This document shows positions 42,551-57,411 of a DNA stretch of 64,000 bases, piece by piece. The DNA is taken from positions 65,927-129,926 of the forward strand of contig JAWKKL010000001.1 in NCBI GenBank assembly GCA_041393275.1. The letters run 5' to 3'. This DNA is from Bacteroidales bacterium. GTDB lineage: Bacteria > Bacteroidota > Bacteroidia > Bacteroidales > JAADJA01. Position 1 is the stretch's first letter; every line of letters starts with the position of its first letter. Made by a program: the position numbers and the translations under genes. The notes beneath the pieces were generated by a model. That model did no database searches. It saw only the letters and a list, made by a program, of their open reading frames with translations, and was not told where the DNA came from.

Positions 42551-45397
42551 TTATGTTTTCAACAGCTCAAACAAAGCTTGCTTTGCAAAATTTTCGATCT
42601 TGGGATTTTTATTATTTGTAAAATTAGCAACAAGTGGAATATACTTTTTATCTTTAATTTGAGCAATCAAATAAAGGGTCGCTAAATTTATTTTTACATC
42701 ATGACCGGAAAGCAACATCGAAAGACACTGAAATTCATCCGGTATTTTCAGGTTCAGGTTTTTAATGGCCTCCTCCGAAAGTGTATCCAGCAGTGCTGTT
42801 TCAACAATGGGAACCAACACCCTCTTTAAATTGGTCTCTAACAGGTTGTCTAAAAACTCTACAGCATTTATGCGCATTTCCGGCTTTTTACTTTGTATTC
42901 CCTGGTAAATATTTAAAATATCATCAAAGGGATATTTTAATCCCAACAATCTAAAAATCCGTTCCAGGTTTCCATCCAGCCGACGTTCCAACAGTACGAT
43001 CAAACTTTTTCGAGCCTCAAGTTCTTTTTCGTTTTGCTCCACACCGAAGTTTTTTTCCTCTATATCCTTTACTGTGGATTGGGTATAAAGTGCGGTTAAT
43101 GTTTCAAGATACAAATGGGCTTCATCCAAAATCCGCCTGATCACATCCTTTTGATGGAAGCGAAGATTAGGGTGGTTAATTTTCAATGTATTCAACGAAC
43201 GGAGAGCTTCCATGCGAAGGCCGATATCAGGATGATCGAGCAAAGAAAATAACAGTTCGACCGATTGCTGTGTCCCAATTTGTTCTAAAATGGAAGGAAC
43301 ATGATGCAATAGTTCAATGCCCCATAAATCTTTTTGGATGATTTCAGCAAAATTTTCAACAATGGCCGGACCATAATTTACAAGCGCCATTTTAGCCGAT
43401 GTCCTGAATTCTTCCTGGATAAGAAAATCAGATAAACAATCGATGAATTCAGGACTTAAGGTATTTCCAGCTGATATGATAGCCTGATTTACGATGTCCG
43501 GGTCTTCATCCTTCATGAAGTTTTTGATCTCAATATAAAAAATAGCGATATTAGCTTGTGCAATCGCTTTTAGAATAATCTTTTTTCTGAATTTGATTTC
43601 CTCAGGATCTTTTAACCCAGCCAGGCTATTTATCCTTTTTTCGATGAGTTTTTCAAGGTCAAATTTATTCCTGAGATCAGGATTATTCCGTGATTCAAGG
43701 GCGAGGCTTACAAGGGCAGCACCCCGCACCCTGTAATCTTTATCATGAAGATATTTTGTCAAAAATTCTACCCGGTTTTCGGGAACATGAGCAATGAGGT
43801 ATTCAAAAGCCGCTGATTTTACTTGTTGATTCGGGTCATTGATCAAAAGTAAGACGCTATCTACACTATGTTGATTTCTGAAAAAATACAAACATTGTAG
43901 TGCTTCCGCACGGATGTCAGCCGATGCATGGTCAAGCAATTTGCTCACATCATCAAATAATCTGTCATCAGGGAATTCTTTTATTTTGCGCAGGATGTAT
44001 ATAATTTGAGTCTCAGTTCCCTTCTGCAATACTTTCCGCAGTCCGCTCAGGACAGATTCTTTTGATAAATCCAGCGAGCCTTTTTTCTCATGGTTTCCTT
44101 TTGTTTGTTCAATTTTTAATTTAAACGACCGCACATACTCAAACCGGATTTTTCGTGAAAAATATATCCAAACAAAGAAAAGGGCAAGAATTATAAGGCT
44201 GATAAAGCGGGTGGAAAGATCAAGCCCGTTCACCACAAAAATAAGGATTATCCCGCTAATTCCTGTGGCCGCGCTATCAATAAAAACATCAATAAAACTT
44301 TTTGTTTGGTTTTTAATCTCAAGGGGTATCGGAAGGGCCATAAGCTCAATGGCTGATTTATTTACCGATTGTTTCAGGCTCCCATCTATAAGTTTTAAAA
44401 TAATAACAGCCCAAAGTTCAGGAAAAATCAAAACGAGAAATGCCCCTAGCATGATGCCGAATGGAAGAAAAAAAAGCGATGTGCCTACGCCAAATACACC
44501 TACAATCCTTCGTGTTATAAAAAGCTGAATGATAAGTGAAATGAGGTTAAAGGTCGAAAACCAAAACCCAAAGAAGGCGGTCAAATCATCGGAGTTGGGA
44601 ATTTTTAATGAAGCGATGGCACTGAACTGATAGTCGACAAGCTTTGCGACGATGACACTGATCCCAATTATGGTCGCCAGGTAAGTCAGGTGTTTCGATT
44701 TTCTGATGAGGGCGATGGGGTTAGAATCAAATCCCTTAATCCGTTTTTTGCGTTGAAATTTTGTTTGCGTTGGTAAAACCTCTTTTTTCCATATGGTTTG
44801 TGTAATCGGAATACAAAATGAAAGTAAGATTGCCGCCACAAAAGGGAGGGTTTCGCTACCGATTTGTTCGGCAATGAGCGATGTAAGGTAACCCCCGAAT
44901 ATGCCTCCTGCAATTGCCCCGGCTCCAATAAATCCGAAAAGACGTTTGGCTTCCCTGGCATTAAAAACAATGTTTGCAAGTACCCAAAATTGAGAAGCTG
45001 ATAGTACCGCAAAAATGGCCACCCATATATAAAACAGGTATAAAACCCAGCCCTCAAGGAAATTAAGCCGTAACAATACCCCAAAAACAAAAAGACTCGT
45101 AACAGACCACAGCATGGTTCGTGTAATGATGATGTTAAGGGGCATACGTGATAATAACCTGGAATATAACAATGAAACCAAACCAGCAAAAACAGCAACA
45201 AGTAAAAAAGCATTGGGCAGGTTTTCGGCTCCCATTTTGGCAAGGAACAATCCGTTGACAGCGGGTTTGACTATGAGAAGTGTGGAAATGATCAGGAAGA
45301 TGTTCAATTGCATCAATACTGCACGGCGGTACTCTCCCTCCCGAATATCAAATACATTCCTGAGCAAATGCTCTGCATATTTTTTGATGGTCTCCAT
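42551..45397 (-). CDS. TLC/AAA-family nucleotide (ATP/ADP) translocase-like membrane domain fused to a ~500-aa HEAT-repeat domain
   Basis: 948 aa. FWVLANIVFNAREAKRLFGFIGAGAIAGGIFGG matches the TLC hallmark (FW..AN....EAKR.Y). There are about 11-12 TM helices. C-terminal repeats include LLDHASADIRAEAL, LHDKDYRVRGAAL and LLDHPDIGLRMEAL. Confidence 0.65.
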   Translation of the reverse strand: METIKKYAEHLLRNVFDIREGEYRRAVLMQLNIFLIISTLLIVKPAVNGLFLAKMGAENLPNAFLLVAVFAGLVSLLYSRLLSRMPLNIIITRTMLWSVTSLFVFGVLLRLNFLEGWVLYLFYIWVAIFAVLSASQFWVLANIVFNAREAKRLFGFIGAGAIAGGIFGGYLTSLIAEQIGSETLPFVAAILLSFCIPITQTIWKKEVLPTQTKFQRKKRIKGFDSNPIALIRKSKHLTYLATIIGISVIVAKLVDYQFSAIASLKIPNSDDLTAFFGFWFSTFNLISLIIQLFITRRIVGVFGVGTSLFFLPFGIMLGAFLVLIFPELWAVIILKLIDGSLKQSVNKSAIELMALPIPLEIKNQTKSFIDVFIDSAATGISGIILIFVVNGLDLSTRFISLIILALFFVWIYFSRKIRFEYVRSFKLKIEQTKGNHEKKGSLDLSKESVLSGLRKVLQKGTETQIIYILRKIKEFPDDRLFDDVSKLLDHASADIRAEALQCLYFFRNQHSVDSVLLLINDPNQQVKSAAFEYLIAHVPENRVEFLTKYLHDKDYRVRGAALVSLALESRNNPDLRNKFDLEKLIEKRINSLAGLKDPEEIKFRKKIILKAIAQANIAIFYIEIKNFMKDEDPDIVNQAIISAGNTLSPEFIDCLSDFLIQEEFRTSAKMALVNYGPAIVENFAEIIQKDLWGIELLHHVPSILEQIGTQQSVELLFSLLDHPDIGLRMEALRSLNTLKINHPNLRFHQKDVIRRILDEAHLYLETLTALYTQSTVKDIEEKNFGVEQNEKELEARKSLIVLLERRLDGNLERIFRLLGLKYPFDDILNIYQGIQSKKPEMRINAVEFLDNLLETNLKRVLVPIVETALLDTLSEEAIKNLNLKIPDEFQCLSMLLSGHDVKINLATLYLIAQIKDKKYIPLVANFTNNKNPKIENFAKQALFELLKT

Positions 45398-45468: not shown

Positions 45469-46386
45469 TTAATTCTTCAGCACCAGTTCGATTTTGGTGA
45501 CCAGTTCGCGGCATATTTTTTCACCCTCCGCATCTTCGATGAGCGTAACCAGGATATACCTTCTTCCGTCAGGTCCCCAAACAAGAACCGAATCCGTATG
45601 AAAATTTTGCCAGGTTCCCGATTTCCTGAATATTTTTGCCCTTGGGGCCACCTTGTCAAGTGTATTTACAAATTTATGATGCAGCTCTGGATCAACCATC
45701 ATATCAAGCATGATTTTCGACCGTTCAGGACTTACCAGTTTTCCGTAGGCAAGCATATAATAATACCTGCAAACCTGCGAAACAGTGGCTGCATGGCTAA
45801 GCCCTTTCATTGGCTCCGGATACCGTTCGCCATATTTGGCATAACGTTTTCCTACCCATAAACCACCGCCATAATCTTCGTCGTACAGGTCATATTTTGG
45901 GTCGGTTAAAACACTTTCAATCTTTTCGTATCCTAACCTGTCAATCATTCGGGTAGAGGCTGCATTATCAGATTTGCTGATCATTAATCGTAAATCATTT
46001 CTTATTTCATCGGATTCTTCCATTTCTCCTTTTTCAATGGCATCTTCAGCGGCCAATAAAACGGCAATTTTTGGCAGGCTGGCAGCATACATCATTACAT
46101 TCCCATTTACTCTTGCATATTTTACATTTTCAGGATCGCGCAAGTCCACAAGGCCCACCGCCATTTTTTTTTGTTCAATCAATCGTTTCCACTTTTTATT
46201 TTTATTTAATTCAGTAATTAACTTTTCCTGAAAGGGTAAATCAACAAGATTCCTGAGGGGTTTGATATCGGAAATAGCGAGTGGAAGTGTATCAAAATTT
46301 GGTTTGATCTCATCACTTTTTTGTGTACAGCCTGTAGTTCCAAAAAGAATTAGCAAAACAATGGAAATCAGTAATTTGTTTTTCAT
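45469..46386 (-). CDS. Lipoprotein with a class-A beta-lactamase fold (serine hydrolase, function unknown)
   Basis: Lipobox LFGTTGC. SLPK (SxxK), SKSDN (SDN) and KSGT (KTG-like). It lies upstream of, and probably in one operon with, the TLC::HEAT gene. Confidence 0.65.
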   Translation of the reverse strand: MKNKLLISIVLLILFGTTGCTQKSDEIKPNFDTLPLAISDIKPLRNLVDLPFQEKLITELNKNKKWKRLIEQKKMAVGLVDLRDPENVKYARVNGNVMMYAASLPKIAVLLAAEDAIEKGEMEESDEIRNDLRLMISKSDNAASTRMIDRLGYEKIESVLTDPKYDLYDEDYGGGLWVGKRYAKYGERYPEPMKGLSHAATVSQVCRYYYMLAYGKLVSPERSKIMLDMMVDPELHHKFVNTLDKVAPRAKIFRKSGTWQNFHTDSVLVWGPDGRRYILVTLIEDAEGEKICRELVTKIELVLKN

Positions 46387-46666
46387 GTGAGTTTTTTAAA
46401 AAATGTGCGCAAAAATCGTTAAAAAACGGATTCCCGTTACATTTTAGTCTAATTATTGAATAATATTTTACAAAAAAGAATCATGGTTTCAAAAAATGAT
46501 CACCCAATAAAATATATTTAACAATGTGCATGTAATAGGCTAATTTTGAGAAGCGAGGAGTTTGATTTTATCCTGAATTTTAATTTGAATAATACAGGCT
46601 CAGCTTTTTTACCCTTAAATTTTATTAACTTTAGCAACCCTAAATTTTACATTTAAACAATAACGA

Positions 46667-47728
46667 ATGAATCTACTTGATGGTGTTAAATCAGCTGAAA
46701 TCAGAATAACAAAAGAAGTACAAGCCCTGAGTGATTTGGTGAAGGATACCACCCTGTCTGTAGTTGACCGGATTGAATCCTTTGAAGATATCATGAATAT
46801 GGAAATCGGTGATACGTCTTTACACAGGGCCCGCAACCTTGAAAGAGAATTAAATATCCGCCAGTTGTATATAAAATATGAAGGTGAAAATCCTTCAGGC
46901 ACGCAAAAGGACAGAATTGCCTTTGCTCAGGTTCACGATGCTTTCCGCAGAAATTATGAAATTATATCCCTGGCCACATGCGGAAACTACGGCGTAGCCG
47001 TTGCTTATGCCGCTCATCTGGCCGGATTGAAGTGCAAAATATTTATTCCTGAATCGTATCATACAGAGCGCATAAAAGAGATGGAACATTTTAATGCGGA
47101 AATCATTCGGCTGTCCGGTTCGTATGAAGACATAGTTACTGAATCAAGCCGGCTTGCTTACGCCAATGAATGGTACGATGCAAATCCGGGGGGGGCAAAT
47201 ACACCACTGCAAATTTCAGCCTATGCCGAAATTGCCAATGAAATTTATGACCAGTTGCGCGATGCCCCAAAATATATTGCAGCACCGGTTTCAAACGGAA
47301 CCTTACTGGCTGGCGTTTATCGTGGGTTTGTGAGCCTTTATAAACGAGGAAAAACATCAAGGATACCAAAATTTATTGCGGGTTCGGCTGCTTTTAAAAA
47401 TCCTATCATTACATCTTTTAAAGCAGGTCTTGAGGAATGTAAAGATATTGACCCAAAACAAATAAAAGAAACAGCCATTAACGAACCATTGATCAATTGG
47501 CATAGCTTTGATGGCGATGAGGCCCTTTACGCCATCCGACAATCAGATGGGGAAGCACACCACATTAGCGATAAGAAAATGCGTGAAATGAGTTCTTTTT
47601 TATTAAAAAAAGAAGGCTACAGAATATTACCGGCTTCCACTTCAGGCTTAATTGCCCTGCTTGAAATGCATGAAAAAAAAGAAATGATAAATGACAGATA
47701 TGTGGCTATATTAACAGGAAGAAGATAA
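46667..47728 (+). CDS. Fold-type II PLP-dependent enzyme (threonine synthase / cysteine synthase-like)
   Basis: 353 aa. The PLP-lysine context is YEGENPSGTQKDRIAF. The glycine-rich loop is APVSNGTLLAG. Confidence 0.7.
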   Translation: MNLLDGVKSAEIRITKEVQALSDLVKDTTLSVVDRIESFEDIMNMEIGDTSLHRARNLERELNIRQLYIKYEGENPSGTQKDRIAFAQVHDAFRRNYEIISLATCGNYGVAVAYAAHLAGLKCKIFIPESYHTERIKEMEHFNAEIIRLSGSYEDIVTESSRLAYANEWYDANPGGANTPLQISAYAEIANEIYDQLRDAPKYIAAPVSNGTLLAGVYRGFVSLYKRGKTSRIPKFIAGSAAFKNPIITSFKAGLEECKDIDPKQIKETAINEPLINWHSFDGDEALYAIRQSDGEAHHISDKKMREMSSFLLKKEGYRILPASTSGLIALLEMHEKKEMINDRYVAILTGRR

Positions 47729-47730
47729 AC

Positions 47731-48804
47731 ATGGAAACAAAAAAAATAACAACAGTATATTGCGAGGGGGCATACAACACAACCAATGGCAAAACCGCGC
47801 ATGGATTAGTTCGCTTAACAGAAAGATATGATATCCAGTCGGTAATAGATTCCCGTTATGCAGGCCAGGATGCGGGCATGGCACTGGATGGAAAAAATAA
47901 TGGTATTCCCATTGTTGGCTCTTTAGAAGAAGCGATGAAAGTGAATGACAACAAAAAACCATCCCATTTTGTTGTGGGCCTGGCCCCCGATGGCGGGAGA
48001 TTGGATAAGGCCGCAAGGCAGGATGTAAAAGCTGCCATCAAATTGGGCTTAAGCGTTGATTCGGGTTTACACGATTACCTGACCGATGACCCGGAAGTTA
48101 TGAAATTGGCCACTGAGGCTAATGTTCATATACATGATATTAGAAAACCTGCGGCAGTTAAAGACCTCCACTTTTTTACAGGAAATATAGAAAAAGTTAA
48201 AGCTTTAAAAATAGCCGTTTTAGGAACTGATTCAGCCGTTGGTAAAAGAACCACTGCATGGCGGGTTGTATTCGGCTTCAGGGAGGCCGGTTACAAGGCT
48301 GAGTTGATTGGTACCGGCCAGACAGCCTGGCTTCAGGGAGCCAAATATAGCATGGTGATGGACTCAGTGGTCAATGATTTTGTTTCAGGCGAAATTGAAC
48401 ATGCCGTTTATTCATGCTGGGAAAATGAAAAACCCGACGTGATTGTGCTGGAAGGTCAGGGAAGTTTGATGAACCCGGCCTATCCCGGAGGATTTGAATT
48501 ATTAGCCGCCGGCCGGCCAGATATAGTAATCCTTCAACATGCCCCGGCAAGGCTTGAATACGATGGATTTCCCGGTTACCCACTACATCCCATTGATCAC
48601 CAGATCCGTGCTATTGAAGTCCTCTCGGGGAAAAAAGTAGTAGCCATTACGGTAAATCACGAAGACTTAAGAGCTGACCAGATTGATGAAGTCTGCCGGA
48701 GAATTGAAGCTGAAACCGGCCTCCCGACGACTGATGTCTTAGTTCATGGTCAGGAAAAACTTATAAAAGCATTACTCCCTTATTTAAAAATAAAACAGCA
48801 TTAG
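47731..48804 (+). CDS. DUF1611-family protein (DgcN-like)
   Basis: 357 aa. KIAVLGTDSAVGKRTTA and VLEGQGSLMNPAYPG are typical of DUF1611. It starts 2 nt after the PLP gene. Confidence 0.6.
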   Translation: METKKITTVYCEGAYNTTNGKTAHGLVRLTERYDIQSVIDSRYAGQDAGMALDGKNNGIPIVGSLEEAMKVNDNKKPSHFVVGLAPDGGRLDKAARQDVKAAIKLGLSVDSGLHDYLTDDPEVMKLATEANVHIHDIRKPAAVKDLHFFTGNIEKVKALKIAVLGTDSAVGKRTTAWRVVFGFREAGYKAELIGTGQTAWLQGAKYSMVMDSVVNDFVSGEIEHAVYSCWENEKPDVIVLEGQGSLMNPAYPGGFELLAAGRPDIVILQHAPARLEYDGFPGYPLHPIDHQIRAIEVLSGKKVVAITVNHEDLRADQIDEVCRRIEAETGLPTTDVLVHGQEKLIKALLPYLKIKQH

Positions 48805-48808
48805 AAGT

Positions 48809-51157
48809 ATGAAAGAAATTGAATCCGATTATAACAGCGATTCGCTGGCCGTTCTTGAGGTCATTGATGAGTTGGTCGTCGGGCCGGTAGAACTTTTGCC
48901 AAATAAGCTCTCTATGCCCTATACAGTAGTGATTGGGAGTGAGAGATCAACATATAACCTTGAGTATAAATATGAAGAGGATGTATTTGAAGCGAATGAT
49001 GGCGGGCATCAGAACCTGGCTTCGCTGGTGGGGGCACAAGTGGCCCTCAATTATGGCCTGTTTTGCAAAAAAATTCGGTTTATTGGCTTATTTGATAATA
49101 CGGATAAACGCTTCATTGCTGATATGATGGAGAATACATCACGTGAGATCTATGTCGTGAAACTTCTGCACCCGAACCCTTTTCTTATAGGCGATGCCTT
49201 GAATCTACCCCTTATTAAGCAAAAAAAATATACCCGTGCACAATTAGAGTTTGAAGGAACTGGCTCAATAAATAAAGTGAAATGGCAGTTTTGGGAAACG
49301 GACAAGATCAAACATTGTATTTTATCCAGCGGAGGAAAAGATAGTTTACTGAGCTATGGCCTGATCAATGAAATTGGAAAAGAAACCCATCCTATTTTTG
49401 TTAATGAATCTGGTAGACATTGGTTTACAGCGCTAAACAGCTTTAGGCATTTTAAACAAAACGTGCCCAACACAGCCCGGGTATGGACCAACAGCGACCG
49501 TTTGTTCAACTGGATGTTAAGGCATTTGTCTTTCATTCGGAAGGATTTTAATACCATCCGTGCTGATGACTACCCCATTCGTCTCTGGACTGTTGCTGTT
49601 TTTTTATTTGGTGTTTTACCCATAATGAAAAAAAGGGGAATCAGTCGTTTACTGATCGGCGATGAATATGATTCTTCCCAAAAGAGAAGTTTCAACGGAA
49701 TTACACATTATTCCGGCTACTACGATCAAAGCAAATATTTTGATGAAGCCATGAGCCGGTTTTATTTTAAAAAAGGGTGGGCCGTAAGCCAGTTTTCAAT
49801 TTTGCGCCCAATTTCCGAATTGCTGATTCAAAAAATACTAACCAAACGCTATCCCGAAATCCAGCAACACCAGGTATCATGTCATGCAAGCCATCAAAAG
49901 GAAGAGCGGATTTATCCGTGTGGTAAATGCGAAAAATGCCGACGCATCGTAGGCATTTTAAAAGCGGTGGATGAAGATGCCACGCGCTGCGGTTTTTCAA
50001 AGGAACAGATAGAATATTGCCTGAAAGAATTAGAAAATAAAAATGTAAAACAAATCGGTGAAGACGCCCGGCAGCTTTATTTTATGCTCAATCAAAAAGG
50101 GCTTATCAAAAAGGAAGGTGTTTTAAAGGGTAATCCTGAAACTTTAATGCTCCGTTTCGATAATGAGCGTTCACCGATCAACGCCATACCCACGGACTTG
50201 CGTAAGAAAATTTACAACATTTTCCTTGCTTACTCCGATGGAGCGGTAATTAAAAAAGGAAGCAATTGGGAAGATTTTGATGTGTTGAATGATCCTGTAA
50301 CAGAAATTTATTATCCTTTTGAACATGATCCGGCTGTGGCTGAAAAGTTTGCTACCGAAGGTATTCAGGAAATTCAGTCGAAATATTTATGGGCTGAACT
50401 AACCTGGCCCGAAGCCGAGGAAAAATTAAGCACTGTTGATGTAGCTATTTTACCGGTTGGTGCCATTGAACAACATGGCCCCCACTTACCACTGGATGTT
50501 GATTCGTTTGACGCAGACTATTTAGCCCGGCGTGTAGCCGAAGCTTGCAGCGATCCAAAACCGCTGGTTTTGCCTCTTATACCTTATGGCGTATCCTATC
50601 ATCACAATGACTTTAAGGGTACGATCAGCATATCAAATGATGCACTAGCAAAGCTGGTATATGAAGTGGGTCTCAGTCTTGCCCGGAATGGCATTAAAAA
50701 GCTGCTTATCATCAATGGACATGGCGACAATAAACCGACCTTGCAATATGCTGCTCAAATGATTAACCAGGATGCGAGGATTTTTACTTGTGTGGATACG
50801 GGTGAAACCTCTGACTTTGATATTGATAAAATCACTGAAACGATCAATGATGTTCATGCAGGCGAAGTTGAAACAAGCACCAGCCTGGCAACTCGCTCAC
50901 ACCTGGTGAAAATGGATTTGGCCGTTTCCAGCATACCACAGTTTACGACAAGGTATTTGAATTTTTCATCGGTTCGTGGATTACCATGGTATGCATATAC
51001 CAAAAAGTTTTCGGAAACAGGCGTCATGGGCGATCCCACCAAAGCAACAGCAGAAAAGGGGGAAAAAATATGGGAAATGATGATCGCTCACCTCGTGGTT
51101 TTAGTGGAGGATCTTAAAAGACTTTCATTGGAGGAAATATTTCAAAAAGGGTATTAA
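48809..51157 (+). CDS. Fusion protein: unknown N-domain, then a PP-loop ATP-pyrophosphatase-like domain, then a C-terminal creatininase-family metal amidohydrolase
   Basis: 782 aa. PP-loop SGGKDS at nt 49328-49345. Cys cluster YPCGKCEKCRR. Creatininase motifs LPVGAIEQHGPHLPLDVD, IINGHGDN and HAGEVETS (about nt 50380-51154). Confidence 0.65.
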   Translation: MKEIESDYNSDSLAVLEVIDELVVGPVELLPNKLSMPYTVVIGSERSTYNLEYKYEEDVFEANDGGHQNLASLVGAQVALNYGLFCKKIRFIGLFDNTDKRFIADMMENTSREIYVVKLLHPNPFLIGDALNLPLIKQKKYTRAQLEFEGTGSINKVKWQFWETDKIKHCILSSGGKDSLLSYGLINEIGKETHPIFVNESGRHWFTALNSFRHFKQNVPNTARVWTNSDRLFNWMLRHLSFIRKDFNTIRADDYPIRLWTVAVFLFGVLPIMKKRGISRLLIGDEYDSSQKRSFNGITHYSGYYDQSKYFDEAMSRFYFKKGWAVSQFSILRPISELLIQKILTKRYPEIQQHQVSCHASHQKEERIYPCGKCEKCRRIVGILKAVDEDATRCGFSKEQIEYCLKELENKNVKQIGEDARQLYFMLNQKGLIKKEGVLKGNPETLMLRFDNERSPINAIPTDLRKKIYNIFLAYSDGAVIKKGSNWEDFDVLNDPVTEIYYPFEHDPAVAEKFATEGIQEIQSKYLWAELTWPEAEEKLSTVDVAILPVGAIEQHGPHLPLDVDSFDADYLARRVAEACSDPKPLVLPLIPYGVSYHHNDFKGTISISNDALAKLVYEVGLSLARNGIKKLLIINGHGDNKPTLQYAAQMINQDARIFTCVDTGETSDFDIDKITETINDVHAGEVETSTSLATRSHLVKMDLAVSSIPQFTTRYLNFSSVRGLPWYAYTKKFSETGVMGDPTKATAEKGEKIWEMMIAHLVVLVEDLKRLSLEEIFQKGY

Positions 51158-51158
51158 T

Positions 51159-52220
51159 ATGAAAATTACAGGGATTGAATTTTGGGAAGTCAGGATGAAA
51201 CTGGCGGTGCCTTACACCATCGCTTACGAAACGTTTGACTCGGCCGTAAATGTCTTTTTAAGGTTAAAAACAAATTCAGGAATTACCGGTTTTGGTTGCG
51301 GGGCCCCGGCCCCTGAAGTTACGGGGGAAACAGAAAAAGATGTCCTTGAAAAAACAAATCGGGTGGTCGAACCATTTTTAAAAAATACTGATCCTCTTCG
51401 GCTTTCTTTTCTCATCGAAAAACTCAAACCTGAATTAAAAGGCTATCCGGCCACCCAGGCGATGGTTGATGCGGCTCTTTGGGATATCATGGCAAAAAAA
51501 GCAGATATTCCTTTATATAAACTGCTTGGTGGTTTCCGCGACCGCATGAAAACGAGCATCACCATTGGTATCATGCCTGTTTCAGAAACGGTGGTTAATG
51601 CGAACGATTTTATTAGACAGGGATTTAAAGTACTTAAAATAAAAGGAGGAATTGATGTTAATGAAGACATCGAACGCGTCGTTAAAACACGTGAGACTGT
51701 GGGAACCTCCATCGAAATCCGTTTTGATGCCAACCAGGGATATAGCCTGGAGGATACAATCCTGTTTGTGAATGAAACAAAAAAAGTAAAAGTTGAATTG
51801 CTCGAACAACCTACACCTTATGATGAACTTGAAAAAATGGCACAGGTAACCAGCAAAGTTTCAATTCCTATTATGGCAGATGAAAGCCTGCAAAACCTGC
51901 GGGATGTGTTCAACATAGCCAGACGTAACCAGGCCGATATGATCAACATCAAGATCATGAAAGTAGGGGGTATTTATGAAGCCATACACATCAATTCGGT
52001 TGCCCGATCTGCCGGCATCGAAGCAATGGTGGGTTGTATGGATGAATCGGCCCTGGGTATTTCTGCCGGGTTGGCATTTGCTCTCAGCCGACCCAATGTC
52101 CATTATGCCGATCTTGATGGCCACCTCGATTTAATTGGCGATCCGGCCCAAGGAGCTGTCATTTTAAAAGATGGAATTTTATATCCTTCGGCTAAACCGG
52201 GATTGGGAATTGAATTGTAA
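51159..52220 (+). CDS. Enolase-superfamily (MLE subgroup) dipeptide epimerase
   Basis: 353 aa. KIKGG (KxK), metal ligands in FDANQGY / LEQP / MADES, a second Lys in NIKIMKVGG, and a DLD (DxD) motif near the C-terminus. Confidence 0.8.
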   Translation: MKITGIEFWEVRMKLAVPYTIAYETFDSAVNVFLRLKTNSGITGFGCGAPAPEVTGETEKDVLEKTNRVVEPFLKNTDPLRLSFLIEKLKPELKGYPATQAMVDAALWDIMAKKADIPLYKLLGGFRDRMKTSITIGIMPVSETVVNANDFIRQGFKVLKIKGGIDVNEDIERVVKTRETVGTSIEIRFDANQGYSLEDTILFVNETKKVKVELLEQPTPYDELEKMAQVTSKVSIPIMADESLQNLRDVFNIARRNQADMINIKIMKVGGIYEAIHINSVARSAGIEAMVGCMDESALGISAGLAFALSRPNVHYADLDGHLDLIGDPAQGAVILKDGILYPSAKPGLGIEL

Positions 52221-52286: not shown

Positions 52287-53048
52287 TTATTTTGTGCAAA
52301 AGTAGATTTCACCACTTGCTGAAGTCAATCCATTCAGAATAGCTTCTTCTTCACTCACAAATTCACTTACGGTAATGGTATCCACTTTGAATCCTGCTTC
52401 GCGAAGCCTGTCGACATAATCAGGGCCATATCTTCGAACATGATCTTCCTGCCCAAAAGCCCGTAGCCGATCCTGTGGCTTCACAATGGATGGATCTTCG
52501 TAAGTTACTTCACTGGTGATAGGAACCAATAATATTGCCCAGCCGTTATTATTCAATACGCGATAAAATTCCTTCATCGCTTTTCTATCGTCTTGAACAT
52601 GCTCAAGTACATGACTGCAATAAATAACATCGAACGATTGGTCGGGGTATTTAATATCTGTAATATCCATATTTACCATTACCCGGGGGTCAATTATATC
52701 GGCTGTTATATAATCGTCTTTTAGTTTCTCCCTTAACCTTTGTTCAAAACAACGCTCGGGTGCTACATGCAGCATCTTTTTTGGAGAGCCATCGAACAGG
52801 TTTGTGTTCCTTAAGAAATAAAGCCACACAAAACGATGTCGTTCGAGTGAACTGCAATGTACACATTGGGCATCCTTTCGCTGAATAATGCCAAATGAGC
52901 GAAACAGACGTGATGAATTACCACACACCGGACAGATTCTTCCTTCACCTGAATATCGAAATTTCCTCAAATTATCCCGTATGGGTAAAAGGTAGTTTTT
53001 TGCCCAGTCGGGCAAATTTGAAGAATAAGGTATATTGTTCTTTTTCAT
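52287..53048 (-). CDS. Class I SAM-dependent methyltransferase with an N-terminal Cys4 ribbon
   Basis: CPVCGN...CVHCSS, then MLHVAPE...FDVIYCSHVLEHVQD (Methyltransf_11-like). Confidence 0.75.
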   Translation of the reverse strand: MKKNNIPYSSNLPDWAKNYLLPIRDNLRKFRYSGEGRICPVCGNSSRLFRSFGIIQRKDAQCVHCSSLERHRFVWLYFLRNTNLFDGSPKKMLHVAPERCFEQRLREKLKDDYITADIIDPRVMVNMDITDIKYPDQSFDVIYCSHVLEHVQDDRKAMKEFYRVLNNNGWAILLVPITSEVTYEDPSIVKPQDRLRAFGQEDHVRRYGPDYVDRLREAGFKVDTITVSEFVSEEEAILNGLTSASGEIYFCTK

Positions 53049-53541
53049 TTAATTATTTGTTAAAAGGATATAACAGAAACTGTTTAATAGTAAAAAATCA
53101 TGAACTTGCAATAATTTTATAATTAGTAATATTATTTTAAAGTTAAATAATTATAAGCTAGTAGCATCACTTTGATGATTTCCAAATATTACCTGTCCTA
53201 ATTTTAAAAGGGAAGAAAATTATGTAGCAGTATGTGGTAAATTAAGTTGTTTAAGGGGATTGGAAGGAGCGCATTGAGTTATAAAGGTGTATGGTTTAAG
53301 TGCCTGGTAATCTATTGATTGGGTAAGTATTTTTAATTTGGAAACAAATCCTTTTTAAAATTTTATTTGGAATTGACAAAGTGTATAAAACATGTCAAAG
53401 AACTATATTTGATATGAATTAATGTATTGTAAGAATATACGTTCAAAAAAAGTTTGCAAATGTAATATAGTTTTCTTGATTATTCAAAAAAATATTTATT
53501 TAGAAAACATGTATTCTGAATCAATAATATTTTATCATTTT

Positions 53542-54395
53542 TTACTTAAGCCGTTTTTCTGATCGAATGAATTTAATTTTTGGCAAAACGATCCTTACCT
53601 CCCGTTCGTCTTCTTTGTCGTACCACCAAACAATAAAATTTATAGTTGCCCTGACCAATGTGTATCCCATATCTATCCATTTATTTAACGACTCTCTTGA
53701 ATTTTTTGAAAATTTCAACACATACTTTTTATTCTGATTCAAAAGTCCATCACACATTGAGGTCATCAGATTCACGAATAATGGTGCCGGCTTTTTCAAC
53801 ATTTTTAACAAGAAAACTATCGGCAAAAAGACGGGGTACGTTTTGCGTTCTTTTTACAAAACCGGCTTCTTCTAATACTGCAATTGCAGTGGTTATCCTT
53901 GTTTCGAGGTCATGCATTTCGGTATCCCATCCGGAATATTTTGCAATTTCGAGAGCTGATTTTATAATTTTTCCTTTCCGGAATTTACTCAGGTATTTCA
54001 ATCCTCTCCATACCTGGGCGATTTCTTTCAGGTTTAAGCGCGAAATATATAACAGTTTGAAATGTTCACTTATATCATTTTCGTCGTACAATACAGAACA
54101 TTCTGCTTTTATGGATTGGTCTCTTCCTGCTCAGCCGGTCTCCCGGATATAGCTCTCAAGCGAAGCAGAAATATCATAATGGATGATGATTTTTATATCG
54201 TCTTTATCCACTCCCATCCCAAAGGCAGGTGTGGCAACAATAATACTGGCTTTTCCGGTCATGAACTTATGCTGAAAACGTCGAATCTTGATATAGAGTT
54301 ATCCGCAAATACAAGCCCATCAAGAACAGCCCCGATTTTCTCAACCTTGTGGTTTTTTTGTTTATTTCAAGGTCGAAGAAAAGAATCCTGGGCAT
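53542..54395 (-). pseudogene. Remnant of a RecQ-like helicase with a DEDD-exonuclease-type N-terminus. It is internally deleted, frameshifted and carries a nonsense codon.
   Basis: The minus strand reads MPRILFFDLEINKK/NHKVEKIGAVLDG, then jumps directly to helicase motifs V/VI ([41 protein letters not shown]). A TGA sits where the conserved Arg of GRAGRD is expected. Motifs I-IV are absent. The downstream part changes frame again near 53750-53830. Confidence 0.6.
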
Positions 54396-55033
54396 GTAGT
54401 TATATTTTCATCAAAATTATTGAAAAAATATGTTGGGAGAAAATGAATATATTAATCTGACGAACTTTAATTGAACACTAAACAATACAACTGATAACTT
54501 TTGGGATTAAATCCATTAAGGGGATCATGAATTGTTGATGGAGTTTAAGGAATTATCAATTCTCTCCAGCTATTAAATGCAATATAGGTTGTTTGGCTAA
54601 AATGTTCTTTCCGTAAATAAAGCATAACGAAGTTATAAAACCTTAGTTGGCATCTTTTGTAATTCGTTTACTTCGGAGCCTTTCATATTGTGATGTAAAA
54701 ATGATCGAGTTTTCATAGGGAATTTTTAATAATTGGGATAATAATGAGGAGAATGCCCTTCAAGTTTAAGGTATGAAAAGTTTAATAGTTTTGTGTTTCT
54801 TCAATTGTTTTCGCTTAGTAACTATGCCCTATTCAAAATTACCAATGAGATATTCCAAAATCAATATTCATATGATAGCCTAAATTACTCAGGATTTGTA
54901 TCCGTTCTTTTTTAATTCCTTAAAAATGTTTCGGTAACATTTTTGAATTTGGCATAGGCTTTTTCATCGGAATAAAATTGTTTGACTTGAAGAAAAATTA
55001 AAGCACAGGGTTTTCATAACAGGTAAACTAAAT

Positions 55034-55763
55034 TCATCGTACCCTTGCCTTTTTCAAATCTTTCTGCGACACGATTTTCCATGTTGGCCACGCGTTTGGA
55101 CCATTTTGCTGTACCATTACCAGGTAGTCTCCAAATGGAAGAGGTTTACTTAATTTGTATACTTGCTTATTATTTAATTTGGTATGTTTGATCACAGCAG
55201 GGTCTACTTGTAATAATTTCGCCCAGATAATTTCGTCAGTCGAGGTAAAGGTATTGTTATAACAAACGTCGTAATTCATTCCGCCGTGTTTAACCCAATA
55301 ATGGCCTGAAAATTTGAAACACTTCAAATCAGAAAAAGAACTTGTTGCAGAAGTAAGCACATTTCATTCCATTTCGAATCGATAATTCGATCCAGGCATG
55401 GTAATAAATTGAGAAGGGTCACTACCATTTGAAAATCCTTGTAACCTAAACATTTTTCGGCAATCCATTTAAAATTATAGTTGAAAGAAGCACAAGCACA
55501 TGCGCATTGCTGTTTCCTTTTCACTATCCACCATCTGCTACTATTCTTCCTGCACTTTGAACCCAGGACCAGTGCTGGCGGCCATATTCATAATAGCTTT
55601 TCATCAACTTTAAAAGTGCCTTTTGAACGGTATCGCCAAAAAGTAATCCTGATCCTGGTATAGGCGGAAGCAGCCTTGCGTTTGAAATAATTTCCCAGGC
55701 AGGCTTATTGATAGTTATACCAAGTTTTCCTATTTTTTCTTTAATTGCTGGTTGAATCGACAT
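55034..55763 (-). pseudogene. Hypothetical ~240-codon gene broken into three frames. It may encode a papain-like Cys/His enzyme.
   Basis: ORFs 55524-55763, 55324-55524 and 55034-55360 abut on the same strand. It has a Cys-rich QQCACACASF segment and a later FSGHYWVKHGGMNYDVCYN segment. The family assignment is uncertain. Confidence 0.35.
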
Positions 55764-55963
55764 AATAAATCGGTTTTTTTATGCTGGCCGTTATAGTCAG
55801 CTGTTAGTATTATTTCCCTGTCAGTTTTTAGCTAATAATATTTTCAAGGGGTAGCTAGTCTTAAATCAGTGAATTCGGGTAATATAAACCATCATCAATA
55901 AATGGATAAGCGGTTTATTCGTTAGTTGGGCCTGGTTAGGAAACAATACAAAAAGGTATTTGT

Positions 55964-57411
55964 TCATGTCAGAGATACATTCAGCCGGATTCTGGATCTA
56001 TTTATTTTCGTTCCTTTATTTATTAAATAAAAAGCAAGAATTAATGCCGAAGTGATAAAGGCTGGAATAAATGAAGATTTGGGTTCATATTGTTCGGGAT
56101 ACAGGGTTCCCAGGTAAAAAGACAAGGTTTACAACAAACCCTGCAATGACACTTAAAACAGCCACTCTGTATTTATAGACCTCTTGCGGAACAATGCCAG
56201 AAAAGTAATAGGAACAATATAACAATTGTAGCTAATCCAACCACCAATAGATCCACAATCCTGGGCAGCAATAAAGCCATCCCGAGGGCGATATCTGAAA
56301 AAATTACAGCCGCTGCCCTGATTTCTTTATGAATATGTTGTTTATCGGCTAGCGAATTTTGTTTTTGCCAACCGGCAAAATCACGAATAGCTGAGATTGC
56401 GATCAGGTTCAGATAACTATCTCCTGAGGACATCAATGCCGACATTAAACCAACCACAGAAAATCCAAGAATAAATTCAGTGCTGTGCCGTTCCAGGAAA
56501 AGATATGCGACGTATTTTGGCTCAATGCTTTCGGTAAGTGCAATTTTTATTGCCATGCCAACCAAAGGGAAAATGATATAAAAAGGCAACATACCCAAAC
56601 CGGATATTATACTCACTCGTACAGCTACTTTTTCATTTTTAGCCGCTAGAATTCGTTGCCAGATATCCATCCGAATTAGAACCGATGGCGATAAAAATAA
56701 TGGCAGACCAATTAAGAAAGCCCACCCATAAAATGTTCCGTTCAGGAAGCTGACTGGAAGTTCCGTAAGTTTGCTCAGATTGTTTGTATCAGATACGATT
56801 CCGGGAATAAATATGACAACGATCATGATGGTAAGAAAAATAAATTGTATCAGATCGGTGATGATTACCCCTGATAATCCTGCAAAAGCAGTGTAGGCAA
56901 TAACAATAAGGCATGAGATGATGGCAGCCGTAAGAAATCCGATGTCGAAGGCAAATTTTAACAAGGAAGCCATGGCCACAAATTGTGCTGCCAAAAGGAA
57001 GAAGAAAATAAAGATATTCACCCCGCTAACGACAGATGAAAATAGCCTGGAAAAACCCTGATCATTTGGAGACGTAAACCTGGAATTGAGAAATTGAGGA
57101 AATGAATATATTTTTTCTTTCCTGCCAATCCGGTTCATCTTTGGAGCGAAATACGACAAAATAAGAAATCCGATTACATAGGCAATACCAATGCTCACCG
57201 CTGCAAGACCGGACTCGTAACCCATAGCCATCAATCCAATGGATGTACCACCACCAACAAATGTCGCCAGGGTTGTAGCAACCAATGGAAATGTTTTAGT
57301 TTTCCGGTTATTGACCAGGTAGTTTTCCAGGTCGCCCGTTTTTACATGACGGGTTGTAAAATACAGGATAAGTAGCAGATATAAAACAATCCAGAATATA
57401 AGCCAGGCCAT
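55964..57411 (-). pseudogene. Sodium:solute symporter (SSS) family transporter. The 3' ~200 nt need two frame corrections. The intact ORF is 56173-57411.
   Basis: The N-terminus ...NYLVNNRKTKTFPLVATTLATFVGGGTSIGLMAMGYESGLA is typical of SSS. Hydrophobic C-terminal segments continue in the other two frames (KYRVAVLSVIAGFVVNLVFL, SSFIPAFITSALILAFYLI) down to a TGA at 55964-55966. Confidence 0.7.

Follow-up and report, generated by a model that had tools for sequence, protein, structure and literature searches.

MurL, an ATP-dependent peptide epimerase, requires ATP and Mg2+, forms AMP and works in the L-to-D direction only; it was proposed to adenylate the α-carboxylate of a terminal Glu, and papers of 2018 and 2021 reported it to be without recognizable domains (PMC5808125, PMC8788868). 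In another described route, D-Glu is converted by acylation followed by racemization, with DgcN, a D-glutamate N-acetyltransferase (EC 2.3.1.312), and DgcA (EC 5.1.1.25) as the enzymes involved (PMC11747546, PMC10845958). Here we describe a four-gene cassette that brings together a remote relative of MurL, a DgcN-related protein, an enolase-superfamily epimerase and an enzyme dependent on pyridoxal 5'-phosphate (PLP). The cassette lies in a stretch of 64,000 nucleotides from a Bacteroidales bacterium (assembly GCA_041393275.1, contig JAWKKL010000001.1, positions 65,927 to 129,926), hereafter the window. Its third gene, gene 3, encodes a bifunctional protein whose N-terminal 500 residues, named X, are joined to a creatininase-family hydrolase. 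The features of gene 3, with confidence given as the AlphaFold2 predicted local distance difference test score (pLDDT), are as follows:

48809-51157, + strand: gene 3, bifunctional, 782 residues; a PP-loop unit like MurL and QueC joined to a creatininase-family hydrolase
48836-49288, + strand: N-terminal alpha/beta domain, residues ~10-160, at best of RNase-H-like topology
49301-49858, + strand: PP-loop ATP-pyrophosphatase core, residues ~165-350, with SGGKDS; predicted fold matches QueC, Cap9 and QatC
49880-49939, + strand: Cys4 zinc ribbon (C358, C371, C374, C377) in a QueC-like arrangement
49949-50308, + strand: helical and small-sheet C-terminal extension of X, residues ~381-500, pLDDT mostly 80-97
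50309-50392, + strand: interdomain linker, residues ~501-528, pLDDT below 50 from residue 507, consensus without conserved residues
50393-51103, + strand: creatininase-family metallo-amidohydrolase domain (PF02633), Pfam residues 529-765

Inspection of the open reading frame (ORF) agreed with an earlier annotation of this DNA, here called the original prediction, that 48809-51157 is a single uninterrupted frame, with 782 codons and a stop on the forward strand. The motifs it had quoted were all present where it had placed them: SGGKDS at residues 174 to 179 (nucleotides 49328 to 49345), YPCGKCEKCRR at residues 369 to 379 (nucleotides 49913 to 49945), EQHGPHLPLDVD at residues 554 to 565, NGHGDN at residues 636 to 641 and HAGEVETS at residues 683 to 690. 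A protein search of 5.8 billion sequences found over 120 homologues that were full-length (~780 to 800 residues) and at least 60% identical, and those with a named source came from Bacteroidales, Ignavibacteriales, Melioribacteraceae and Desulfobacterales. Relatives were present in at least 588 species when one genome per species was scanned. For a survey of gene context we used the 80 best loci, all from metagenome-assembled genomes and representing more than 10 phyla. Both halves lay within one ORF in 76 of the 80; three of the four exceptions were loci cut by contig ends, and at locus L047 the hydrolase was split, probably by a local sequencing error.

The same data bear on the concern, raised in the original prediction, that a stop codon or frameshift missed near 50300-50400 had merged two genes. 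Both alternative frames are rich in stops across the junction (50200 to 50500). The linker is variable in sequence and constant in length (27 to 32 residues, ~29, across loci), and the PP-loop core and the hydrolase each retain ~70 to 75% identity between phyla. A frameshift or missed stop is ruled out because the full-length homologues are independent, coming from different assemblies and phyla, and because nearly all of the surveyed loci are fused; with the constant linker and the closed alternative frames, the chance of a merge artefact is practically nil. The fusion of a PP-loop module with a creatininase-family hydrolase is real and ancient, and the recurrence that the prediction had left to be checked is borne out. 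Literature searches returned no paper describing the fusion or the cassette, and none joining DUF1611, the family of gene 2, with creatininase; the only two papers that mention creatininase alongside QueC are unrelated, and the library searched yielded no MurL paper after 2021. The N-terminal half is covered by no Pfam, NCBIfam or PADLOC model. As the prediction had supposed, the fusion thus appears to be uncharacterized, its components belonging to known superfamilies.

The distribution of X contradicted the claim of a three-part protein with an independent N-terminal domain of 160 residues. An exhaustive HMMER search of 1.84 billion cluster representatives with residues 1 to 520 recovered only 403 relatives. 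Many of these were stand-alone proteins of 460 to 520 residues, from bacteria and archaea, that covered residues ~16 to 490 of the query. The N-domain was present in every stand-alone homologue and always attached to the PP-loop core, which carries the further family motifs NESGRHW, RVWxNSDR, YPIRLW, GDEYD and HYxGxYDQS. Because the stand-alone homologues span this range, the N-domain, PP-loop core, Cys4 zinc ribbon and C-terminal extension are, as judged from the alignments, one evolutionary unit, and the architecture is two-part: the unit of residues 1 to 500 plus the creatininase domain. Modelled alone, the N-domain reached a pLDDT of 83. Foldseek matched it to RNase HI with a probability of 0.99 and an E value of 2e-4, but with a template modelling (TM) score of only 0.30 to 0.36 and a root mean square deviation of ~10 Å, and we rejected an RNase HI identity, keeping the match as a topology hint only.

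Sequence profiles gave weak support for a PP-loop enzyme in the N-terminal half. Pfam QueC scored 18.2 bits on gene 3 against a cut-off of 22, over residues 299 to 379 only, and the QueC models of NCBIfam matched none of 23 distant X-family members. Searching the PDB with the N-terminal half as a single sequence gave only noise, and an X-family profile reached the PP-loop proteins TtuA, MJ0690, Cap9 and MnmA at borderline E values of 0.07 to 0.2, through the PP-loop motif. Because these searches gave noise or borderline matches, structure prediction was needed. An AlphaFold model of residues 1 to 522 had a pLDDT of 81 and a predicted TM score of 0.83, and SGGKDS directly followed the strand of residues 165 to 173. 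Foldseek matched the model to QatC first (9y02_B, E value 3.5e-5) and then to Cap9 (9nto_B) and QueC, with a probability of 1.00. QueC (2pg3 and 3bl5) was the best-superposing solved fold, at a TM score of 0.62 to 0.67 normalized to the target; TtuA, MnmA, ThiI and asparagine synthetase matched more weakly. The predicted structure thus confirmed what the profiles had left weak, that the N-terminal half belongs to the PP-loop ATP pyrophosphatase/adenine-nucleotide alpha-hydrolase superfamily.

Conservation was consistent with both the PP-loop and the QueC-like Cys cluster named in the original prediction. Among the 23 distant X-family members, S174, G175, G176 and S179 were at least 90% conserved; C358, C371 and C374 were invariant and C377 was at least 90% conserved, and within the fusion family all four Cys residues were invariant. 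This Cys4 stretch lies under both the subthreshold Pfam QueC match and the MurL match described below. In two full-length X members, P0132 and P0210, the PP-loop is degenerate: where the family has SSGGKDSLL, they read VESGTNDLL and LNAAPEAVL, and they may be ATP-inactive paralogues.

The only named family that X-family members reached was MurL (NF041275), which 11 of the 23 matched, always in one region. The best match, P0238, aligned with MurL positions 130 to 354 of 447, from the PP-loop to the zinc ribbon, at an E value of 7e-10, and P0238 itself matched the gene 3 protein at 5.6e-27. Against a model cut-off of 700 bits, the highest X-family score was 37.9 bits, and the gene 3 protein scored 15 to 16 bits (E value 0.003 to 0.005) over residues 326 to 379. 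In P0174, MurL positions 97 to 172 aligned ahead of and across the PP-loop, and ~150 residues are therefore implied before the PP-loop of MurL too; by inference, the N-domain would travel with the PP-loop core there as well. At these scores the relation of X to MurL is one of remote homology and not of orthology, and MurL, rather than QueC proper, is the nearest named relative of the N-terminal half. Named MurL sequences sought with the bridging protein P0238 were not found among its six matches. At locus L093, P0271, a relative of P0238, lies amid more than 20 small same-strand ORFs without Pfam matches, in a phage- or mobile-element-like stretch.

The C-terminal half was readily assigned, as predicted, to the creatininase family: PF02633 matched over profile positions 1 to 237 of 238, at an E value of 1.4e-70 and 237.9 bits (cut-off 31.3). 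The predicted metal ligands and catalytic residues are E554, H556, D565, H638, H683 and E688. In an alignment with Pseudomonas putida creatininase, E34, H36, D45, H120 and H178, the last followed by the ETS motif, correspond to E554, H556, D565, H638 and H683, and these five were invariant in 20 orthologues. The metal site, which the original prediction had called complete, is so except at one position, where the equivalent of creatininase E122 is D640 in gene 3 and Gly in many orthologues. Judged by these residues, the domain should be catalytically competent. Its sub-family was less clear. The closest NCBIfam model was MftE (TIGR03964), at 145.6 bits against a cut-off of 172; creatininase proper (TIGR04448) gave 106.1 bits (cut-off 235), IolN 76 bits (cut-off 245) and ArfB 25 bits (cut-off 180). 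No radical-SAM, mftA/B/C or other mycofactocin genes were present in the operon of the window or at the surveyed loci.

Gene 3 is one of four tightly packed genes in the order PALP, DUF1611, fusion and MR_MLE, separated in the window by 2, 4 and 1 nucleotides. The other three are as follows:

46667-47728, + strand: gene 1, fold-type II PLP enzyme of 353 residues, threonine-synthase/CysK-like, with the lysine motif NPSGTQKDRIA (Pfam PALP, E value 7e-54)
47731-48804, + strand: gene 2, DUF1611 protein of 357 residues, DgcN-related (Pfam DUF1611_N, E value 4e-26; DUF1611, E value 1e-63)
51159-52220, + strand: gene 4, enolase-superfamily dipeptide epimerase of 353 residues (Pfam MR_MLE_N and MR_MLE_C)

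The full cassette was present in 47 of the 58 loci with room on both sides, and nearly all loci had the gene of the PLP enzyme upstream, whether they carried the fusion or stand-alone X. Gene 1 matched NCBIfam PRK06381 ("threonine synthase") at 428 bits, but scored 100 bits against the true thrC model (cut-off 167), and its nearest PDB entries were threonine synthases at an E value of only 1e-22. Its predicted reaction is thus assignable only as threonine-synthase/CysK-like, and by score it is no true ThrC. Gene 2 scored 160 bits against NCBIfam DgcN (cut-off 480), so that it shares the DUF1611 family with DgcN without being an orthologue; its PDB relatives were 2g0t, 2obn and 7xrj. Gene 4 was most similar to the dipeptide epimerases 3jva, 1jpm/1tkk and 3rit (E values of 1e-65 to 1e-61) and keeps the KxK motif, the second catalytic Lys, the Asp/Glu/Asp Mg ligands and the DxD motif. 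The segments LKIKGG, FDANQ, LEQP, MADES, NIKIMK and ADLDG align with YkfB (1jpm) and are conserved in 57 orthologues. We take DxD to bind the α-ammonium group of the dipeptide in YkfB, and Arg24, in the 20s loop, to bind the Glu side-chain carboxylate. In gene 4, Glu24 replaces this Arg, as it does in 54 of the 57 operon orthologues, and all 57 carry an MDES motif that is common to 3rit. NCBIfam scores were below threshold, at 228 bits for A_G_epim (cut-off 500) and 152 bits for DgcA (cut-off 400). On the presumed roles of the YkfB residues, Glu24 and MDES therefore argue against L-Ala-D/L-Glu as substrate, and they suggest a specificity tuned to a cationic, basic residue.

Little was conserved around the cassette. 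Clustering of the flanks of ~80 loci identified nothing generally conserved beyond it; recurrence was confined to a YitT-family membrane gene in Desulfobacterota, to sigma-54 regulators at 13 loci and to Usp proteins. Rfam gave no riboswitch or leader RNA in the window or in 46350-46700, and promoter and terminator scans upstream of the operon remained at background level. Beside locus L046 we noted Ddl-like ATP-grasp genes and a GNAT-HDAC gene, which were dropped as evidence since they are unconserved at other loci.

The cassette occurs in several variants. In Desulfobacterota, a form consisting of PALP and the fusion often has behind it, in translational coupling, the gene of a YitT-family membrane protein. 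At L048, L052, L022, L067, L070, L077 and L081, this YitT-family protein, which carries a DUF2179 domain, starts -3 to +4 nucleotides from the last cassette gene, and this coupling was seen for both the four-gene and the PALP-fusion variants; the YitT-family protein may be a transporter of the pathway. Archaeal loci carry PALP-DUF1611-X trios, and a DUF1611-X-MR_MLE variant without the hydrolase also exists. Stand-alone X adjoins GNAT acetyltransferases in five independent contexts, among them a PALP-DUF1611-X-GNAT operon. P0125, a protein of 855 residues, is a natural fusion of DUF1611 (residues 44 to 349) with X (residues 380 to 854) and therefore provides Rosetta-stone evidence that the two work together. 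At an archaeal locus that also carries DNA polymerase D (L009/L010), a D-aminoacyl-tRNA deacylase gene (PF04414; 7053-7856) immediately precedes PALP-DUF1611-X and shares its strand, a single observation that agrees with a D-amino-acid theme. P0152 (L091/L092), a distant X-creatininase fusion with 30% identity, lies beside a 421-residue protein and a CofD-family (PF01933) gene. Because this context differs, we limit what we conclude from the operon to the main clade; the X-creatininase fusion may serve more than one pathway.

Three of the operon families have characterized relatives that take part in the D/L conversion of amino acids carried as N-acyl or peptide derivatives, namely DgcN, DgcA together with the dipeptide epimerases, and MurL; and the acyltransferase, racemase and amidohydrolase of the operon match the known scheme of acylation, racemization and deacylation. 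The original prediction had proposed sequential action on one substrate, by putative ring opening or closure or by amide exchange. Sequential action is reasonable and fits the fusion, the flexible linker of ~29 residues and the tight operon. The strongest clue, however, is the operon, which the prediction had not used: its PLP enzyme, DgcN-like DUF1611 protein and dipeptide epimerase all suggest that the substrate is an amino acid or a dipeptide and that D/L stereochemistry is involved, rather than a generic cyclic amide. We favour, with a probability of roughly 0.35, a reading in which X adenylates an N-acyl amino acid or a dipeptide at its α-carboxylate, and in which this molecule is also the one whose amide or ring bond the fused hydrolase breaks, giving an irreversible stereochemical conversion. 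In this scheme, the DUF1611 protein would N-acylate an amino acid, a task that GNAT proteins may take over in other lineages, and X would adenylate the α-carboxylate of the N-acyl amino acid or of a dipeptide. The adenylate would readily cyclize to an oxazolone-type ring with a labile Cα proton. The creatininase-type domain could then hydrolyse, stereoselectively, either this five-membered ring, a look-alike of creatinine, or the N-acyl or peptide bond, and this hydrolysis would make the conversion irreversible. The reversible enolase-type epimerase would equilibrate the C-terminal residue, so that the net result would be an ATP-driven, one-way D/L conversion. The acidic specificity residues of the epimerase suggest that the converted amino acid is basic, and the PLP enzyme would supply or consume it.

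Several points weigh against this reading. The similarity of gene 3 to MurL, at 16 bits against a cut-off of 700, is remote, and MurL-like chemistry is an analogy and not a matter of orthology because the surroundings of the best bridging sequences are phage-like. The MR_MLE protein and the MurL-like unit would be two epimerizing activities, which look redundant, and the PLP enzyme, the most constant partner of X, is without a defined role in the scheme. For oxazolone formation and for stereoselective hydrolysis of the ring, the argument is one of chemical reasoning only. At the surveyed loci no transporter is conserved with the cassette save the YitT-family protein in Desulfobacterota, so biosynthesis fits at least as well as salvage.

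A biosynthetic reading was weighed in its own right. Here the acyltransferase would activate or protect an amino acid, and the PLP enzyme would make a non-protein, possibly diamino, acid by β-replacement; X would ligate or ring-close with ATP, the hydrolase would take off the protecting acyl group or open the ring again through the other amide bond, and the epimerase would set a D-centre, yielding a small product, be it a modified amino acid, a dipeptide or a cyclic compound. D-cycloserine biosynthesis follows such an order of acetyltransferase, PLP enzyme, racemase and ATP-dependent cyclase, and N-acetyl protection is used in arginine biosynthesis; the parallel with cycloserine is one of logic, no enzyme being homologous. 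The PLP enzyme and X form the most constant pair, down to the minimal PALP-fusion clusters with or without YitT and the archaeal trios, the KDRIA lysine motif of the PLP enzyme is CysK-like, and the epimerase is apparently tuned to a cationic residue. There is no conserved uptake system, and the coupled YitT protein, or the TetR and major facilitator superfamily genes found at some loci, could serve export. Yet so wide a spread (at least 588 species, more than 10 phyla and archaea) and such high conservation are not what a secondary metabolite usually shows, and joining a ligase to a hydrolase that breaks the bond it makes would, in the simplest form of the pathway, be futile. We regard such a pathway as an unlikely alternative. 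The possibility that gene 3 works as an amidotransferase we likewise judge unlikely. PP-loop synthetases fused to a hydrolase (glutaminase) domain, such as GuaA, NadE and AsnB, are classically amidotransferases, and on this precedent the creatininase-type domain would free ammonia or an amine from an amide donor for the acyl-adenylate formed by the PP-loop unit, giving an amide or peptide, with stand-alone X as the ammonia-dependent form, like NH3-dependent NadE or QueC. The closest structures, QueC, Cap9 and QatC, all make an amide from a carboxylate adenylate; the hydrolase domain is optional across the X family, as it is in the NadE family, and the flexible linker and strong co-conservation of the halves fit coupled active sites. 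Against this, we know of no creatininase-family member that frees ammonia, the known activities being ring opening, formyl removal and peptide-bond cleavage; moreover, by sequence X is closest, among named families, to an epimerase and not to an amide synthetase, and the dipeptide epimerase and DgcN-like protein would be left without a role.

The resemblance to QueC invites two further explanations, neither of which we consider at all probable. Deazapurine- or pterin-type metabolism, in which a paralogue of QueC would use a carboxylate resembling 7-carboxy-7-deazaguanine and would be coupled to an ArfB-like hydrolase for a formamidopyrimidine derived from GTP, would account for the QueC fold with its zinc ribbon and for the weak ArfB match (25 bits), and the automatic annotation of some homologues at the Joint Genome Institute mentions 7-cyano-7-deazaguanine synthase. 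The Pfam QueC match is nevertheless subthreshold, no X-family member matches QueC in NCBIfam, the ArfB score falls far short of 180, ~90 loci contain no queD, queE, queF or GTP cyclohydrolase genes, and the operon partners are all amino acid enzymes, which makes this explanation very improbable. More improbable still is a protein-conjugating, anti-phage enzyme of the QatC/Cap9 kind that attaches a deazaguanine to the N terminus of a partner protein. QatC and Cap9 are indeed the top Foldseek matches, and the alignment with QatC extends over 490 columns, but the TM score to QatC is only 0.35 to 0.43, PADLOC is negative for the four operon proteins, QatA, QatB, QatD and CD-NTase neighbours are missing, and the cassette is a fixed metabolic operon outside defence islands.

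It is possible, if somewhat unlikely, that the fusion represents a new enzyme class and a widespread, unrecognized pathway of anaerobic sediment bacteria and archaea. A MurL-type module would activate the α-carboxylate of an N-acyl amino acid or a dipeptide and a creatininase-fold domain would resolve the activated, perhaps cyclic, intermediate, the outcome being either an ATP-driven one-way stereo-inverter of amino acids or the first amidotransferase with a creatininase-fold donor domain. If so, the fold and general chemistry of MurL would be revealed as well, and if D/L conversion is the true function, it would be relevant to the ways in which microbes of sediments exploit or produce D-amino acids. 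The X family itself, ~500 residues without a Pfam or NCBIfam model, occurs in hundreds of uncultured species of bacteria and archaea, as a rule with the PLP enzyme and DUF1611 as its neighbours. The link to MurL lends a QueC-like PP-loop and zinc ribbon frame to an enzyme described as lacking domains, and hints that "peptide editors" of this kind, which use ATP to adenylate a carboxyl group, reach far beyond the cell-wall case of Xanthomonas. With only four genes, the cassette is compact, and it is very highly conserved, and the role of DUF1611/dipeptide-epimerase clusters is therefore directly testable by reconstitution.

The genes around the cassette in the window are as follows:

42551-45397, - strand: 948-residue protein with an N-terminal membrane region, a weak match to the TLC ATP/ADP transporters (E value 2.6e-9) and then HEAT repeats
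45469-46386, - strand: lipoprotein-like gene of the class-A beta-lactamase family (PF13354)
52287-53048, - strand: S-adenosylmethionine-dependent methyltransferase whose N terminus bears a zinc-ribbon-like Cys motif; the gene converges on the operon end

The 948-residue TLC/HEAT protein, an unusual combination, is kept upstream of the cassette in four loci, including L012, L013 and L019. The PF13354 gene, which diverges from the operon across an intergenic region of 280 bp, is conserved in only four loci and, from its family, could encode a DD-peptidase-type enzyme. The methyltransferase gene is absent from the conserved flanking clusters of other loci. Beyond it, 53049-56172 is a gene-poor region of ~3.1 kb with a G+C fraction of 0.35 and short ORFs only, some of which look as if a larger gene had been broken up; searches there for tRNAs, Rfam families and significant repeats were negative.

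Compared with known systems, gene 3 shares with QueC (PF06508) the SGGxDS PP-loop and the C...CxxCxxC zinc site, and differs from it in that X adds an N-domain of ~160 residues and a C-terminal extension of ~120 residues; neither the operon of the window nor the conserved neighbours at ~90 loci include queD, queE, queF, GTP cyclohydrolase or other 7-deazaguanine genes. QatC of QatABCD and Cap9 of type IV CBASS (cyclic oligonucleotide-based antiphage signalling system) are the top Foldseek matches of X and, like it, larger members of the QueC-like group; they form an amide from a carboxylate adenylate. They differ from it in the low TM score of the QatC superposition (0.35 to 0.43) and in context, X belonging to an operon of small-molecule enzymes, with no PADLOC match for any of the four operon proteins and no QatA, QatB, QatD or CD-NTase neighbours at the surveyed loci. 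With GuaA, glutamine-dependent NadE and AsnB, gene 3 has in common an amide hydrolase covalently joined to a PP-loop adenylating domain and the existence of hydrolase-free versions, but its hydrolase has the creatininase fold, for which no ammonia-releasing member is known; the likeness is one of design only.

The hydrolase itself matches the creatininase family (creatinine amidohydrolase, MftE, ArfB and IolN) over its full length and shares the Glu/His/Asp/His ligands and the catalytic His. The peptide-bond hydrolase MftE scores best, yet the gene 3 domain falls below every equivalog cut-off, and its fusion to a PP-loop enzyme sets it apart from the family proper. At the level of the whole cassette, a Geobacillus operon encodes an N-succinyltransferase, an N-succinylamino-acid racemase and a desuccinylase. 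Such acylate-racemize-deacylate routes, whether of the Geobacillus or the DgcN type, employ a hydrolase of a different family from that in the cassette. The combination of an acyltransferase, an enolase-superfamily racemase or epimerase and an amidohydrolase in one operon nevertheless recalls the DgcN/DgcA route (PMC11747546, PMC10845958), from which the cassette differs in having a racemase of the dipeptide-epimerase type with DxD and additional ATP-consuming PP-loop and PLP enzymes. MurL is without a creatininase domain, and, across the window and the surveyed loci, no MurD2 partner, Mur ligase or cell-wall context was found in or near the cassette; the X family also occurs in archaea, which are without murein. 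What likens X to MurL is a similar size (447 residues for MurL), the ~150 residues that precede the PP-loop, and the ATP use, AMP formation and action on the C-terminal α-carboxylate of an N-acylated amino acid that are described for MurL (PMC5808125, PMC8788868).

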